This document shows, in pieces, positions 1-9,000 of a stretch of DNA of 25,522 bases. This DNA comes from Fidelibacterota bacterium (GTDB lineage Bacteria > Fidelibacterota > Fidelibacteria > Fidelibacterales > Fidelibacteraceae). The stretch is taken from contig JAYEOX010000149.1 of the NCBI GenBank assembly GCA_034723415.1, forward strand, positions 7,271-32,792. Reading direction: 5' to 3'. A program made the position numbers. The first letter of the stretch is position 1. Each line of letters starts with the position of its first letter.

Positions 1-3000
1 AACAAAAAACACCCTGCAAAAAATATCACAGAGTGTTTAGTACCGAAGACCGGACTTGAACCGGTACAGACAAAAATGTCCGAGGGATTTTAAGTCCCTT
101 GCGTCTGCCAATTCCGCCACTTCGGCATTTTAATGAGGCGACGGCCGGATTCGAACCGGCGCGTAAAGATTTTGCAGACCTCCCCCTTAGCCACTTGGGT
201 ACGTCGCCATCTTATTCAAATAGCTACATATAATATAATAATTTTTTCTAAAAAACAACTGTTTTTCTTATTTATTTTTTTTAACTTTAAAGTAAAATAT
301 AAGGAAATAACATGAAAAATTTAAAAATAATAAGTGACAAAAAAATAATAGAGATCACCAAATCATTTAATTTGCCAATTTATGTCTATGATGAAAACAC
401 ATTATTGGAATCTGCAAAACAAGTAATTAATTTTCCCAATGCTTATGGGTTTACACCGAGATACGCAATCAAAGCACTCTCTACAGCTGCAATATTAAAA
501 TTATTCAATGAATATGGATTACATTTCGATGCAAGTTCCGGCTATGAAGTTGAGAGAGCAATTAGAATCGGTATCACTCCTGATAAAATTCAACTTACTT
601 CACAGGAATTGCCTAATAATATTGAAGAATTTGTAAAAAAGGGAATTATTTTCAATGCCACTTCCCTTTTCCAATTAGAATCTTATGGGAAATTGTTTCC
701 TGATACAAATATTAGCATAAGAATAAATCCCGGTATGGGTTCCGGTCATGTAAAACGAGTAAATGTCGGTGGACCATCTTCCAGCTTTGGTATTTGGAAA
801 GATGACATTCCACAAGCAAAAATAATTGCAAAAAAATATAATTTAAAAATTAATAAATTACATACACATATCGGTTCAGGAACAGATCCGGATATTTGGA
901 AAAAAGTTGCGAAATTAAGTTTGAATACAGTAAAATTATTTCCTAATGTTCACACATTGAATCTTGGAGGTGGATTTAAAGTTGCTCACTCTGATCATGA
1001 AAAAACTACAGATATCCAGAACACCGGAAATATAATTAAAGATATTTTCATGGATTTTTACAAAGAAACCGGAAGAAAAATAAAATTAGAGATCGAACCC
1101 GGAAATTATCTCGTTACTAAATCAGGAATTTTAATTACAAAAATAATTGATAAAAATTATACAGGTAAAGATGGATATAATTTCATTAAAATTAATAGTG
1201 GGATAACAGAGATCACTCGCCCGGCAATGTATGGCTCCTTTCATTCGATGTATATTATAAAAAATAATGAAAATAATATCAATGAAGAAGAAGAAACAAT
1301 TGTAGTTGGACACTGTTGCGAAAGTAGTGATATTCTAACACCGGAAATTAATGATCCTGAAGAATTACAACCTGTAAAACTTAAGAGAGCAGAAATTGGT
1401 GATTATCTCATTGTTGAAAATATCGGTGCTTACTGCTCTTCTATGTCTTTCAGCAATTATAACTCATTTCCACAAGCAGGAGAATTACTTTTGAAATCTG
1501 ATGAAAATCTAAAAGTCATTCGTAAAAAACAAACAATGGAACAGATAATTCAAAATGAAGTTACGAGTTAAAAAAATAGCCACGAATTCACGAATAATAA
1601 TATATCAATTAAATAAAAATATGACAGCACAAAAAAATAGTAAGCTTGGAATTTATTTATTCTAATAGAAAATATTTCATCCATATCATTTGCATATTAA
1701 CAAATAATTTTATATCTTAATTAAAAAAAGATAGGTGAAAATATGAAAATGAAAAAGATAATTTTATTTCTATTGATCTTATTCACTTCTTTAATTTATG
1801 CACAGGATACCGAAAAGCTAAAAGAAGCTCGCTACTACCAAAAGATGAAAAAAGATCGTGTCCACTGTCTGCTTTGCCCAAATAGTTGCATTTTGTCGGA
1901 AGGACAAACTGGCATATGTGGTGTTAGAAAAAATATCGATGGCAAACTATATTCATTGGTCTATAACAAACCAGTAGCAATAAACATTGATCCGGTAGAA
2001 AAAAAGCCGTTATATCACTTTTATCCCGGAACAAAAATTTTATCTATTGCTACAGTCGGCTGTAATATGCGATGTAATTTCTGTCAAAATTGGGAAATTT
2101 CTCAATCCAGACCAAACGAAGTAAAACCCTATAATATGACTCCTAAACAAATTGTTGAACTCGCAAAAAAATATAATTGCAAATCTATTGCATTCACTTA
2201 CACCGAGCCAACGATTTATTACGAATATATGCTTGACATTGCTAAACTCGCTAAAAAAGAGAATCTAAAAACTGTAATGGTTACCTGTGGATTCATCAAT
2301 GAAGAGCCATTTCGAGAGCTTGCAAAATATCTTGATGCAGCAAATATAGATCTAAAGGGATATTCTGAAAAATTCTATTCAACTTACACAACAGGAAAGT
2401 TACAACCGGTTTTAAATACATTAAAAATAGCTAAAGAGGAAGGATTACATTTAGAAATTACTAATTTGGTTATTCCTGATGCAAATGATGAACCTGAAAT
2501 GATACGTAATATGTGTAAATGGATAGTTGATTCTCTCGGAACAAATTACCCACTTCATTTTTCACGCTTTTTCCCAAAATATAAATTACTTAATCGTCCG
2601 CCGACACCATTAAAAACTTTGAAAAGGGCAAAAAAAATCGCTGAATCAGAAGGAATTAAACACATTTACATTGGAAATATTTCTACAGAATCCGAAGATA
2701 CATATTGCCCTAATTGCAACAAAAAAATTATCGATCGTTCCGGTTATAAAATAGAATCCATTCATATTAAAAATGGTAAATGTAAATATTGCGGAGAAAA
2801 AATTTATGGAAGATGGAATAAATAAAAGTTTGAAAAAATGAAATCAATTTCCATTAATAAAACAAATCTGAAACAGTATCTAATTTTTATTATCTACGGG
2901 ATTGTATGCTCTATCGGGCAGACGATTCTACTTAGAGAATTGATGGTAGAAGTAAACGGAAACGAAATTATTTTTTCAATTTTTCTCTCACTTTGGTTAT

Positions 3001-6000: not shown

Positions 6001-9000
6001 TATTATCTCGATCATCAAAGATTATTAAAAGTTAAAAAACCTATTTCCGAAATATTAAATGCAGAGCGTGCTGTCTTCGTAACATTAAAAAAGGATTGTA
6101 ACTTACGTGGATGTATCGGCCAGTTGCACGCACAAATGTCACTTTATAAAGCGGTTTTGAGCATGTCTGTTTCGGCTGCATTCAATGATCATCGTTTTTC
6201 ACCATTAACGGATGAAGAATTTGATGATATAAATATAGAGATCTCTGTTCTAACTCCGATGCAGAAAATAGATAATATTGATGAGATAAAAATGGGCAGA
6301 GACGGAGTCTATATAAAGAAAAGAAACAGAAGTGGTGTGTTTTTACCACAAGTAGCAACTGAAACAAATTGGGATAAAATAACATTTCTAGAAAATCTCT
6401 GTTCTCATAAAGCGTTTTTATCAAAAGATGCGTATAAAGATGATGACACGGATATTTATATTTTTCAGGTGGAGAAGTTTAGAGAAAAATAGCCGCGAAT
6501 TCACGAATATTTTTTAGTGTATTAGTGGCAAAATATTATACAAAAAATTTTATTCTCTCCTCCACTCCAAATGCGAAATTTCTTTTCCATCCCAGACGAC
6601 ATAACTTCTATGTCTGATCCAATCGCCTAAAATGATAGAATACTTATCATTAGTTTTTATCAACTTTGGATAGTGAATATGTCCCATCATTACAATATCA
6701 TGATCTGCATTATTTTTTATGTTCATAAATTTTATCATTTCATCCACATCTTCCAATTTAACAGTTGAATTATTATATCGAAATGTAATATTACTTACTT
6801 TTTCACCAATTTTATATATCAATGAAGCAGGCAATATTTTGAATAGTGAAATTATAATTTTTGATCTCAAGATTTTTTTCAATAATCTGTATCCACTATC
6901 ACGTTTCAATAGACCATCTCCATGCATCAGTAAAAATTTCTTATCATTGTGAATGAATTCAATTTTATTTGGATAGAAATATAAACCAATATTTTTTGTT
7001 AAGAATCCCTCTATCCAATAATCATGATTCCCAGCTATGAAGTGAATTTCAATTCCGGCTTTTTTTATCTCTTTCAAGTATTCTACAACTTCCGTCAAAT
7101 TTTTATGAATATAATTTCCATGATCAAACCAAAAATCAAAGAAATCACCAAGTAAAAAAAGTGTCCCTTTTGTTTCAATTATTTTTTCGAAAAGTGAAAA
7201 TAGATCTTTTCTTTTCTCAATTTCATTTTTAGATAATATTGTTGAAATATGAGTATCGGAAATAAAATAAAATGGTAATTTTAAATTACTATTCTTTAAA
7301 TTTTCATTTTTTTGGTTCAATTTTCAATCCCAATTCTTTCAGCTGTTTTTCGTCTATAATGTCCGGTGAACCGATCATTAGTGATTGAGCAGTAGTTGTT
7401 TTAGGAAAAGCAATGACTTCACGAATTGTGTCTTCACCTGCAAGAATTGAAACTAAACGATCAAATCCAAATGCAATTCCGCCATGTGGAGGAGCTCCGT
7501 ATTCAAAAGCATCTAATAAAAATCCGAATTTTCTATTTACTTCTTCATCGGAGATATTTAATGCAGAAAATATCCTATTCTGTTTTTCACGTGAATGAAT
7601 ACGAATGCTTCCACCACCAATTTCTTGACCATTAATTACCACATCATAACCGCGTGACTTTACCTTCTCGGGATTGCTTTCCAGATATTTCCAATCTTCT
7701 TCATTTGGCGAAGTAAAAGGGTGATGCATTGATTGGTAGCGATCTTCTTCATCATTATATTCAAATAGAGGAAAATCAGTAACCCACAAGGCAGATATTT
7801 TATTTTTGTCGATCAGTTCCATTTTTTTCCCAAGATATTTTCTGATACTTCCCAAAGCCGTCAACGAAATTTTCCATTTATCGGCCATGAAGAAAACCAG
7901 ATCATTTTCTGTTAATTTCAATTTATCAACAAGTAATTTTCCCGATTTTTCGTCAATGAATTTTGCAATTCCTGATTGAAACTCATTTTTATTGTACTTT
8001 ACATAGGCAAGACCTTTCGCTCCGTATCTTTTTGCCAATTCGGTTAATTCATCAATATTTTTTCTTGAGAATTTTGCTCCGTTCTTTACTTTTAAAGCTC
8101 TAACTACGCCACCATTTTCAATTGCAGAATGAAAAATTTTGAAATTCGTCTGTTTAGCAAAATCTTCCACATTTTCTATTTTCATTTCAAATCTTGTATC
8201 AGGGCTATCGCTTCCATATTTTTCCATTGCTTCATGATATGTCATTTTCGGAAATGGAATTGAAATTTCTTTATCGACCGTATCTTTAAAAATTTGTTTC
8301 AACATTTTTTCTGACACTTTCTGAACATCATTTTCATCAATAAATGACATTTCAATATCGATTTGCGTAAATTCCGGTTGCCTGTCAGCCCTCAGATCTT
8401 CATCGCGAAAACATTTAACTATTTGAAAATATTTATCAAAACCGGAGATCATTAATAACTGTTTAAATGTCTGTGGAGATTGTGGTAATGCATAAAATTT
8501 ACCCTTATTTTCTCTACTTGGTACAACAAAATCCCGCGCTCCTTCAGGTGTTGATTTAATAAAAAATGGTGTTTCTATCTCCATAAATTTTTCATTACTC
8601 AAAAATCCTCTGGTAGATTGCAATGCCTTGTGACGAATCAGAATATTTTTCTGTAATTGTTCTGTTCGCAGATCCAAATATCTATATTTCAATCGTAAAT
8701 TTTCACTTCCGGTTTCACGCTTTTTAATTTCAAAAGGAGTTGTTTTCGATTTATTCAGCATTTCAAAATCCTTTACAACGACTTCAATTTCACCTGTCGG
8801 TATATTTTTATTAACTGAACCCTCCGGTCGCTTATGTACTTCACCTTCCACAGCAATAACATCTTCCATATTCAATTGTTTAACTGTTTTTAGAATATTT
8901 TTTGGCAGATCGTTATCAAATCTTACTTGTATAATTCCGTATCTATCCCTTAGATCGACAAATGTAATTCCACCCAGATCTCGTCTTGTATTTATCCATC

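Follow-up and report, generated by a model that had tools for sequence, protein, structure and literature searches.

The window analyzed here, a 25,522-nucleotide stretch of a Fidelibacterota contig, contains a conserved three-gene unit (positions 1743 to 6492) that encodes an AmmeMemoRadiSam-type radical SAM enzyme (rSAM), a membrane protein combining an MFS-like body with a SpeE-like domain, and a Memo-AMMECR1 fusion protein. We read this module as a membrane-targeted variant of the AmmeMemoRadiSam system that has its products on the external side of the membrane, that probably reached this genus by lateral transfer from a Cloacimonadota-like lineage, and that has a lysA gene beside it by chance; taken as a whole, this account has in our judgment a slightly better than even chance of being right. 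Judged by its AspS, for which the best match is from Marinimicrobia (82%), the host genus is Marinisomatota-like.

Four co-directional open reading frames (ORFs) lie on the forward strand with short gaps between them, as the survey's finding had described, and the Pfam and NCBIfam matches first noted for the decarboxylase, the rSAM, the SpeE-like domain, and the Memo-AMMECR1 protein were all found again. The first ORF (positions 312 to 1571; 419 amino acids [aa]) encodes a PLP fold-III decarboxylase, most likely LysA. By the ORF coordinates, an AT-rich spacer of 171 nt (1572 to 1742) separates it from the genes for the rSAM (1743 to 2825; 360 aa), the membrane protein (2838 to 5018; 726 aa), and the fusion protein (5029 to 6492; 487 aa), and the gaps inside this trio are 12 and 10 nt. 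A promoter and terminator scan of the spacer gave sites no commoner than in shuffled sequence. The junction between lysA and the module is bridged by contigs from all four DNA runs, which belong to one study.

Linkage of the module genes was surveyed in the best 80 of 582 confirmed loci that hold homologs of the membrane protein. A TIGR04337-type rSAM is present in 61 of these 80 loci (within 3 kb in 57), Memo in 44, and AMMECR1 in 45, and Memo and AMMECR1 form one ORF in 42 of the 43 loci that hold both; the counts overstate independence, because the sample consists of the highest-scoring loci, some of them closely related. Among 81 genomes sampled from the host phylum, at least two rSAM copies occur in 18 of the 19 that have the membrane protein, compared to 2 of the 62 that do not. 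Together with the complex model described below, the linkage and the copy numbers bear out the survey's proposal of a functional tie between the SpeE-like membrane protein and AmmeMemoRadiSam, although not the polyamine part of that proposal.

The rSAM scores 406.4 bits against TIGR04337 (cut-off, 220) and also matches PF04055; its C107-x3-C111-x2-C114 motif and its N- and C-terminal cysteine groups do not vary among 26 module copies. In translation, its first 20 residues (positions 1743 to 1802) show a basic start and a hydrophobic run with no twin arginine, and this segment, in which strain variants including a 6-nt insertion are located, looks like a Sec-type signal or signal anchor. Both the rSAM and the fusion protein carry such a hydrophobic extension of about 20 aa, and the genome's unlinked copies do not. 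Targeting signals, called by motif, hydropathy, and eye, are tied to module membership in other genomes as well. Of the 55 module rSAMs from elsewhere that could be assessed, 49 show a Tat-like motif (RR in 36, KR in 13), 4 a non-Tat hydrophobic N-terminus, and 2 neither, with 6 further copies cut or unassessable. In eight genomes that have both a module copy and a copy elsewhere, an RR signal is found on all eight rSAMs adjoining the membrane protein and an extension of any kind on none of the eight others. In Cloacimonadota, a non-RR hydrophobic N-terminus occurs on three of three rSAMs adjoining the membrane protein and on 0 of 27 others.

The type of signal also matches the distribution of TatC, being Tat-type where TatC occurs and Sec-like here and in Cloacimonadota. 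TatC was found in 67 of the 81 genomes of the host-phylum sample; searches of the window's genome, its genus (0/3), the neighboring genus (0/8), and 41 Cloacimonadota genomes (0/41) gave none. In most lineages the module rSAM N-terminus is of the S/T-R-R-x-F-L-K type, as in the general class of Tat-exported iron-sulfur proteins and in cofactor-bearing periplasmic proteins. The module differs from that class in having a radical SAM enzyme as its cargo, and the window's own copy differs further in having no RR motif, in a genome with no TatC found.

The fusion protein has a Memo part (aa 24 to 296, positions 5098 to 5916; TIGR04336, 250.3 bits; PF01875) and an AMMECR1 part (aa 314 to 484, positions 5968 to 6480; TIGR04335, 178.9 bits; PF01871). 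The RGCxG and DxR-aromatic motifs, named as AMMECR1 motifs in a passage of PMC2034487, are readable in its translation. Residues 1 to 20 (positions 5029 to 5088) resemble a lipoprotein signal with a Cys at its end. Of 44 Memo proteins elsewhere whose genes adjoin that of the membrane protein, 38 carry a hydrophobic stretch at the N-terminus (mean hydropathy over 12 aa of at least 2.0), in many followed by a Cys or Ala-x-Ala. The unlinked Memo of this genome begins directly at the conserved core; it belongs to the unlinked and unfused second set that the survey had also recorded and that we located on contigs C28 (rSAM, 433 to 1437) and C82 (Memo, 6956 to 7783; AMMECR1, 7796 to 8347). The module shares with the canonical AmmeMemoRadiSam system (TIGR04335, A/AMMECR1; TIGR04336, B/Memo; TIGR04337, rSAM) three families scoring above their cut-offs, clustered genes, and the CX3CX2C and AMMECR1 motifs. 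It differs in being a copy additional to the ordinary set, in the targeting segments of its rSAM and Memo-AMMECR1 proteins, in the fusion itself, and in the dedicated 14-helix protein encoded between the rSAM and the fusion; in the rSAM tree the module copies stand apart from the ordinary ones with a support of only 80.

The AlphaFold2 model of the membrane protein (pLDDT 84.2, pTM 0.86) has 14 membrane helices in two blocks of seven rather than the 15 (8 + 7) counted earlier, and this parity bears on the topology. Helices 1 to 7 (aa 8 to 225, positions 2859 to 3512) and helices 8 to 14 (aa 512 to 725, positions 4371 to 5012) were both placed from the secondary structure of the model, loop K+R counts, and hhalign, which aligns helices 1 to 6 to helices 9 to 14 (probability 94%, E = 1e-7). 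Between the blocks lies the SpeE-fold domain (aa 226 to 511, positions 3513 to 4370), recognized by Foldseek and an HMM search of the PDB. K+R residues number 17 in the loops predicted to be inside and 1 in those outside, and across 20 of 20 aligned homologs they number 11 to 24 and 0 to 5, respectively, with the SpeE-like loop on the outer side in each count; the prediction is thus that the domain forms a loop outside the cytoplasm that joins helices 7 and 8.

Assignment of the body to the MFS is weak, as PF07690 matches some of the homologs and not the window's protein, and a Foldseek search with the whole model returned SpeE chains only. The same architecture and conserved motifs are seen in proteins of Omnitrophota and Woesearchaeota that NCBI names "fused MFS/spermidine synthase" (25 to 31% identity across 94 to 98% of the length) and in PRK03612-type membrane SpeE-like proteins, with NF002956 matching aa 23 to 387. 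The window's clade differs from these relatives in having GGLLNG where they have GGGVGG and in keeping Y267 and D356. A literature search on the "fused MFS/spermidine synthase" family yielded no paper, and to our knowledge neither these proteins nor the PRK03612 type have been characterized.

The membrane protein is the genome's only match to PF01564 (55.4 bits, aa 266 to 429). Its SpeE-like domain has the fold of solved spermidine synthases such as 1uir/3anx of Thermus thermophilus, 1inl/1jq3 of Thermotoga maritima, and human 2o05 (Foldseek target TM 0.62 to 0.73; HMM versus PDB, E = 5e-26). The residues that contact ribose and adenine are conserved, as is the D-P of DxxDP, and E312, D338, D359, and P360 are kept in all 20 family members. 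The domain differs from SpeE in being inserted between two seven-helix blocks with a predicted extracytoplasmic position, in its scores far below the cut-offs of all polyamine aminopropyltransferase equivalog models, and in its GGG[D/E]G loop, where 0 of 20 members keep the acid and a hydrophobic residue stands instead. The SpeE catalytic positions Y267 and D356 are both kept in the window's clade and in 12 and 11, respectively, of the 20 members across the family; some alkyl-transfer chemistry may be possible because the window's clade keeps them.

A complex model of the rSAM with the SpeE-like domain gave an ipSAE of 0.87, against 0.32 for the best control. Among solved complexes, 116 of 157 attain that mark, and among mismatched pairs 2 of 215; these counts apply only roughly here, because our own alignments were used for the model. 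Separate runs share at least 92% of contacts, with a partner pLDDT of at least 92, and the modeled interface joins the loop after strand 387-393 to rSAM residues just past the CX3CX2C motif. These results favor docking of the rSAM onto the SpeE-like domain; no solved SpeE-rSAM complex is known to us.

A lateral signal is present in the module. In the host-order sample, the membrane protein occurs only in the window's genus (G000 and G063), being found in none of the 13 other family genomes and in neither of the two from the sister family. Our counts point in the same direction as the survey's percentages for neighboring genes. The membrane protein is 55 to 62% identical to Cloacimonadota copies and 21 to 29% identical to the 17 other host-phylum copies, and the rSAM is 74 to 78% identical to Cloacimonadota module copies and 49% identical to the unlinked copy of the same genome. 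In the rSAM tree, the window's copy nests among four Cloacimonadota module copies (SH-aLRT 94/92/90, none starred), and an AU test rejects a clade with eight Marinisomatota module copies, a group named after the tree had been inspected (delta lnL 136.66, p = 3.4e-7). On these comparisons, the source of the module was probably a Cloacimonadota-like lineage.

The survey had placed all four genes in a polyamine operon, in which the decarboxylase would make a diamine, the SpeE-like enzyme would add an aminopropyl group, and the triad would modify that polyamine. The co-directional genes and short gaps, the PF01564 match and SpeE fold, the retention of Y267, D356, and D359 in the window's clade, and a decarboxylase score below the lysA equivalog cut-off (TIGR01048, 265.1 versus 297.9 bits) are in keeping with this idea, but it is unsupported as an operon because none of the 80 related loci holds the decarboxylase. 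That protein, identified from its sequence, is most likely the housekeeping diaminopimelate (DAP) decarboxylase, adjoining the module and lying outside it: its best solved matches are the DAP decarboxylases 7jpj (395.5 bits) and Escherichia coli 1knw (211.6 bits), with both of which it aligns end to end, it is the genome's sole TIGR01048/PF02784 match and so its only fold-III decarboxylase, and DapF is also encoded. Of the 15 family genomes, 14 retain a lysA ortholog, whereas within this family the module occurs in a single genus, and the gap to lysA is 171 nt compared to 10 to 12 nt inside the module. The 0/80 count, the single fold-III copy, and the DAP decarboxylase matches argue against the decarboxylase as a polyamine-operon member. 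Modification of a polyamine by the triad fares no better, since a search of the genome, which is 94.4% complete, revealed no AdoMet decarboxylase (PF02675), none of 20 family members has the GGG[D/E]G acid, and the predicted position of the SpeE-like domain is outside the cytoplasm, away from any dcSAM pool. We regard the polyamine operon as highly improbable.

A second alternative is that the N-termini serve solely as anchors, holding the rSAM and Memo-AMMECR1 at the inner face of the membrane, and that the SpeE-like loop is cytoplasmic. The system would then use ordinary cytoplasmic SAM and reductants, and its substrate would be cytoplasmic or embedded in the membrane. No SAM, electrons, or iron-sulfur assembly would be needed outside the cell. 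No radical SAM enzyme is known to work outside the cytoplasm, and neither a SAM pool nor a low-potential reductant is known in the periplasm. No redox partner gene lies within the window; DUF362 and polyferredoxin genes accompany 19 and 11, respectively, of the 80 related loci, mostly in Acidobacteriota. The window's rSAM has no Tat motif, and no TatC was found in the genome. Sec export would deliver an unfolded protein into which iron-sulfur clusters have to be inserted outside, for which we know of no precedent; for this locus, that is where the external reading is weakest. The central loop of classical MFS proteins is cytoplasmic, and the external topology here is a prediction. Against the inner location stand the Tat-like motifs of 49 of the 55 module rSAMs, Tat being a route for folded proteins; the basic starts of the N-termini, which favor N-in, C-out insertion; the lipobox-like Cys or Ala-x-Ala sites after the Memo-AMMECR1 signals; the seven helices, not six or eight, that precede the domain in the model; and the K+R bias in 20 of 20 homologs. 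On this evidence we consider a cytoplasm-facing system unlikely. Decidedly unlikely, in our view, is an external module whose SpeE-like domain, its dcSAM-selecting acid lost, is itself a transferase, moving a methyl or 3-amino-3-carboxypropyl group from SAM onto an amine of an envelope molecule. The rSAM, Memo, and AMMECR1 would process that group further, so that something of the polyamine idea would survive in distant form. Y267, D356, and D359, which the window's clade keeps, the invariant E312 and D338, and the position of the modeled interface are compatible with it. D356 and Y267 are not conserved family-wide, so the chemistry of the domain, if it is catalytic, would not be common to all modules, no acceptor is known, and the reading is inferential throughout.

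We therefore return to the exported module as the preferred reading. The N-terminal signal of the rSAM, which is of the Tat type in most lineages but here Sec-like or an anchor, would direct the enzyme to its place, and the Memo-AMMECR1 fusion would be exported, probably as a lipoprotein. The 14-helix MFS-like protein would display its SpeE-fold domain outside as a dock for the rSAM. Since that domain retains its contacts to ribose and adenine but has lost the dcSAM-selecting acid, its ligand is probably not dcSAM but another adenosyl compound, either SAM or a SAM product. The transporter body probably moves a small molecule through the membrane, either SAM outward or the substrate or products. 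With all three products on the outer face, the substrate would be an envelope or periplasmic molecule and not a cytoplasmic polyamine, and the organism retains the ordinary cytoplasmic AmmeMemoRadiSam set elsewhere in its genome.

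Four open reading frames (ORFs) follow one another in the same direction at window positions 312-1571, 1743-2825, 2838-5018 and 5029-6492; the spacers between them measure 171, 12 and 10 nt. The survey's finding had read them as one polyamine operon, with a decarboxylase, a radical SAM enzyme (rSAM), a SpeE-like membrane protein and a Memo-AMMECR1 fusion protein. Its gene positions and domain matches were reproduced by Pfam and NCBIfam, and the second AmmeMemoRadiSam set that it mentioned, unlinked and unfused, is present on two other contigs of the genome, C28 and C82. AMMECR1 and MEMO1, proteins of as yet unassigned chemistry, occur all the way from archaea to humans as conserved families. 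The last three genes of the row most likely constitute a membrane-targeted, probably outward-facing variant of the known AmmeMemoRadiSam system, here Tat-independent and of lateral origin; the location, ligand and substrate of this module are what we infer.

Set against the canonical AmmeMemoRadiSam system, the module lies above all three family cut-offs and retains the rSAM cluster motif and the AMMECR1 motifs. The rSAM scores 406.4 bits with TIGR04337 (cut-off 220), and the three cysteines of its CX3CX2C motif (C107, C111 and C114) do not vary among 26 sequences. Two genes downstream of it, the 487-aa fusion protein scores 250.3 bits with TIGR04336 (cut-off 26) and 178.9 with TIGR04335 (cut-off 99). 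Both RGChG and DxR-aromatic, named as AMMECR1 active-site motifs in the excerpted text of PMC2034487, are readable in its translation.

When one genome per species was scanned with a pattern, relatives of the membrane protein numbered at least 582, and the best 80 of these 582 were taken with up to 8 kb of flanking sequence. These loci are top-scoring and include close kin, so that the following counts are not independent events: a TIGR04337-type rSAM is present in 61 of the 80 (within 3 kb in 57 and within 700 nt in 36), Memo in 44 and AMMECR1 in 45, the last two forming one ORF in 42 of the 43 loci that have both. The proposed tie of the SpeE-like membrane protein to this copy of the AmmeMemoRadiSam system thus gains strong support. 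As labelled, the 80 loci belong to Cloacimonadota, Bacteroidota, Acidobacteriota, Planctomycetota, Omnitrophota, Thermodesulfobacteriota, Nitrospirota-like magnetotactic bacteria and several archaeal groups. Within the sample of the window's phylum, two or more TIGR04337 matches occur in 18 of the 19 genomes that have the membrane protein versus 2 of the 62 that do not.

Beyond the three core families, clustering of all ORFs that lie up to 5 kb from the membrane-protein gene shows three more families that recur across the 80 loci: DUF362 (19 loci), a membrane polyferredoxin (Fer4_5; 11 loci) and DUF6599 (9 loci), mostly in Acidobacteriota. Carriers include loci L016, L023, L033, L041, L048, L049, L058 and L076. 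These families look like redox, candidate electron-supply partners; none of the three was found in the window. At one archaeal locus (L028:10255-12789), the longest ORF has 844 aa and the rSAM similarity falls in two pieces, nt 10372-10686 and 12043-12780; the rSAM gene there may be split or interrupted.

The first gene of the row encodes a 419-aa fold-III PLP decarboxylase. Its score with the TIGR01048 lysA model, 265.1 bits, is below the equivalog cut-off of 297.9. It is nevertheless most likely the housekeeping LysA, a neighbor rather than a member of the module, because it is the sole TIGR01048 and PF02784 match in the 94.4%-complete genome, because its top ten solved matches are all diaminopimelate (DAP) decarboxylases (7jpj at 395.5 bits; E. 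coli LysA, 1knw, at 211.6 bits), because DapF is encoded in the same genome (186 bits, cut-off 114.65), and because an ortholog of 47-80% identity occurs in 14 of 15 family genomes and 2 of 2 sister-family genomes of the 81-genome phylum sample, with no homolog in any of the 80 membrane-protein loci. On these results the label of a polyamine operon is not supported. A search for AdoMet decarboxylase (PF02675) gave no match in this genome and matched 7 of 14 reference genomes as a control; a supply of decarboxylated SAM (dcSAM) is therefore not evident, although in an incomplete genome the gene may have been missed. Support for the proposed polyamine substrate class came from a chance neighbor, LysA, and from a SpeE-like domain in which the features of an aminopropyltransferase are missing.

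The junction of lysA and the rSAM gene is no assembly artifact, since contigs from four DNA runs of one brine-metagenome study bridge it and the gene order across it is identical in a second genome of the genus. Co-transcription of lysA with the module is neither supported nor opposed by a promoter and terminator scan of positions 1-7400, the counts of which are at chance level (46 promoter-like sites versus 45.8 expected; 3 terminator-like sites versus 2.7). In two module-less family genomes (G022 and G034) the decarboxylase gene has unrelated neighbors, and apart from it nothing in its surroundings is common to the window; the comparison therefore shows no clean empty insertion site. Near lysA in one of them (L085, G022:C1 13701-17594) lies a gene for a gingipain-like peptidase of family C25 that bears a type IX secretion sorting domain.

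Directly upstream of lysA, on the opposite strand, are tRNA-Leu(taa) (40-126, -) and tRNA-Cys(gca) (135-208, -). Metagenome contig depth is ~10x greater across the first 247 bases of the window, as expected from conserved tRNA sequence common to other organisms. Downstream of the module and on the strand opposite to it are a gene for an LpxH-like calcineurin-type phosphoesterase (6550-7320, -), which is under the equivalog cut-offs (108 versus 134 bits) and shares 17 nt with the start of aspS, and aspS itself (7304-9073, -). A full division and cell-wall (dcw) cluster (9313-25356, +) then extends to the window end; its first four annotated genes are mraZ, rsmH, ftsL and that of a PASTA-bearing PBP.

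An AlphaFold2 model of the 726-aa membrane protein, built on 20 homologs (pLDDT 84.2, pTM 0.86), has 14 membrane helices in place of the 15 counted in the survey. Seven of them span aa 8-225 and the other seven aa 512-725; between the two blocks are a mixed alpha/beta domain, from aa 229 to ~482, and then linker helices. With the N-terminus taken as inside, the short inner loops carry 11 to 24 Lys and Arg residues and the outer loops 0 to 5 in each of the 20 homologs (17 versus 1 in the window protein), a bias that would place the 299-residue domain on the outer side of the membrane. Helices 1-6 and 9-14 are homologous to each other (hhalign probability 94%, E 1e-7). From the helix count, the loop charges and this homology, the modeled layout corresponds to a 6+6 transporter plus two additional helices that bear a putative external domain, in agreement with the name that NCBI gives to relatives, "fused MFS/spermidine synthase." The window protein has no Pfam match to PF07690 (MFS), and a few homologs carry a precomputed one; a Foldseek search with the full-length model (726 aa) retrieved SpeE chains alone and did not identify the fold of the membrane body.

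The loop domain (aa 226-511) has the full SpeE fold, as judged from Foldseek (target TM 0.62-0.73) and profile comparison (E 5e-26), and PF01564 (Spermine_synth) matches aa 266-429 with 55.4 bits against a cut-off of 22.9. In SpeE, the acid of GGG[D/E]G selects dcSAM over SAM, the positions of E312 and D338 hold adenosyl-binding acidic residues, and DxxDP is a characteristic motif. E312, D338, D359 and P360 are invariant in 20 of 20 homologs, as are N366, R367, N397 and R473; the first Asp of DxxDP (D356) is kept in 11 of 20 and a Tyr in 12 of 20, the window protein having both. The window domain thus shares with the polyamine aminopropyltransferase its fold, adenosyl-binding acids and DxxDP. 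All equivalog models, however, score far below cut-off (TIGR00417, 63 against 249.55; NF002010, 73 against 260; NF002956, 101.8 against 472), and the acid of GGG[D/E]G is absent, the aligned column being L, V, I or T in 20 of 20 homologs (GGLLNG in the window). These residues are consistent with a domain in which binding of an adenosyl compound persists but selection for dcSAM is lost.

We modeled the complex of the loop domain (aa 226-512) and the mature rSAM (aa 24-360), each with its own alignment, taking the median of three runs. The ipSAE was 0.87, and the best of three controls reached 0.32. Among solved complexes 116 of 157 attain the ipSAE mark, as do 2 of 215 mismatched pairs; these benchmark counts hold only roughly here because own alignments were used. 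The runs share at least 92% of contacts, with partner pLDDT of at least 92. On the rSAM side the modeled interface includes residues 78-87, an invariant D-P-x-E-K-K-P stretch, and 116-122, just past the cluster motif; on the loop-domain side it includes 395-403 and 457-476, the latter with the invariant R473. As a prediction, the model supports binding of the rSAM to the loop domain.

The module's rSAM and fusion protein each have ~20 N-terminal residues before the family core, with a basic start and then a hydrophobic run; read by eye, aa 1-20 appear to end in Ala ahead of Gln-Asp in the rSAM and in Cys in the fusion protein. The unlinked rSAM, Memo and AMMECR1 copies of the same genome begin at the family core and have no such extension. 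Two of the four DNA runs (X1 and X4) show a substitution cluster and a 6-nt insertion behind position 1770, within 1750-1784. These variants all lie inside the part that codes for the hydrophobic segment of the rSAM, so the signal region is where strain-level differences are concentrated.

Among the 61 rSAM N-termini in the 80 loci, six were cut or unassessable and 55 were assessed. An RR motif of the S/T-R-R-x-F-L-K type is present in 36 of the 55 and a K-R variant, read by eye, in 13, giving 49 of 55 with a Tat-like signal. Four have a hydrophobic N-terminus that contains neither RR nor K-R (three Cloacimonadota and one Omnitrophota), and two have no targeting segment: L013, with a doubtful start, and L020, where the rSAM gene is 6.5 kb off. 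As a matched control, in eight phylum genomes with both kinds of copy, an RR signal is present in 8 of 8 rSAMs beside the membrane protein, and any extension at all in 0 of 8 elsewhere. A hydrophobic N-terminal stretch is likewise found in 38 of the 44 Memo proteins that adjoin the membrane protein; of the six exceptions, one is cut by a contig end, one is barely below the threshold, and in four the longest-ORF start is far upstream, so that the first 60 residues miss the relevant part.

The window's rSAM has neither RR nor KR-x-F-L in its basic stretch and so does not qualify as a Tat substrate, and TatC (PF00902) was absent from the search of its genome, from its genus (0 of 3) and from a neighboring genus (0 of 8). 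TatC was found in 67 of the 81 phylum-sample genomes, including all eight of the matched control, 5 of 5 in the third genus of the family and nearly all other families sampled, and the Tat pathway looks to have been lost lineage-specifically in two family genera. Nor was TatC found in the three Cloacimonadota genomes whose module rSAMs have no RR, or in any of the 41 sampled genomes of the phylum of one membrane-protein locus, L005; at 30 rSAM loci in that sample, a non-RR hydrophobic N-terminus occurs in 3 of 3 beside a membrane-protein homolog and 0 of 27 others. The relation between signal type and TatC is independent of G004, one of two Tat-positive comparison genomes. Drawn together, the Tat-like, non-RR and TatC counts indicate that a predicted membrane-targeting N-terminus is kept wherever the rSAM adjoins the membrane protein and that its type fits the available export machinery. 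Sec-type targeting of an iron-sulfur enzyme is the chief weakness of the export reading for the window.

The host is Marinisomatota-like, as seen from AspS, which is closest to "Candidatus Marinimicrobia" proteins (82% and ~63%); a Cloacimonadota host, to which the homologs of the membrane protein point, was rejected on this ground. The nearest relatives of the module are Cloacimonadota-labeled copies, at 55-62% identity for the membrane protein and 74-78% for the rSAM; 17 other membrane-protein homologs in the phylum sample reach only 21-29%. Within the family the membrane protein is confined to the window's genus (G000 and G063), with 0 of 13 in the other family genomes and 0 of 2 in the sister family. 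An rSAM tree was calculated for 57 rows (quick search, SH-aLRT, unrooted), with 21 of the 80 loci hand-picked; L014 and the majority of the 80 were left out, as were truncated copies. In it the window's module rSAM is nested among four Cloacimonadota module copies (SH-aLRT 94, 92 and 90, none starred), and the unlinked rSAM of the same genome groups with Marinisomatota unlinked copies (97, starred). A clade that unites the window copy with eight Marinisomatota module copies is rejected by an AU test (delta lnL 136.66, p 3.4e-7); this group was named after the tree had been seen, and the identity values had pointed to it beforehand. A lateral origin of the module is most likely; since the tree is unrooted, the direction of transfer follows from the nesting and from the absence of the module in the rest of the family.

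Burroughs et al. reportedly extended the gene contexts of Memo in 2019 towards nucleotide-base and isoprenoid modification. The excerpted text of PMC2034487 (2007) links AMMECR1, a Memo-type dioxygenase-like protein and an rSAM through genome context and proposes RNA-base modification for the system. "Memo-Ammecr1 systems" are referred to in the accessible part of PMC7159879, which cites Burroughs et al. 2019 (J Biol Chem 294:10211) for them. Our literature searches returned no description of an exported form of AmmeMemoRadiSam or of a membrane partner, a context that Burroughs et al. 2019 may cover. Searches on rSAM enzymes with twin-arginine or periplasmic export gave no exported rSAM at the level of titles and abstracts, and a search for a fused MFS and spermidine synthase found nothing. 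Searches that joined AMMECR1 and MEMO1 with rSAM enzymes, or Memo and AMMECR1 with dioxygenases and isoprenoids, were likewise empty. The papers listed for "AmmeMemoRadiSam" mention it no more than in passing.

A more ambitious scheme, to which we assign a low probability, is that the module works as a self-contained rSAM machine on the outward side of the membrane. Its MFS-like body would deliver SAM or take away products, the external SpeE-like domain would retain an adenosyl compound and dock the rSAM, and an envelope molecule would be the target on which Memo-AMMECR1 completes the chemistry. In lineages that have no Tat pathway, like that of the window, the rSAM would cross by way of Sec and acquire its iron-sulfur clusters outside the cytoplasm; we know of no route for such insertion in bacteria.

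For the polyamine proposal the practical outcome is negative. If the location holds true, the module would represent the first extracytoplasmic radical SAM system, and its Tat-less copies would raise the question of the route by which iron-sulfur clusters, SAM and electrons reach the rSAM. With its fixed tie to a membrane protein and its apparent targeting to the outer face, this paralogous set narrows the search for a substrate, and the three-gene module in culturable relatives among Bacteroidota and Acidobacteriota provides a tractable handle on it.
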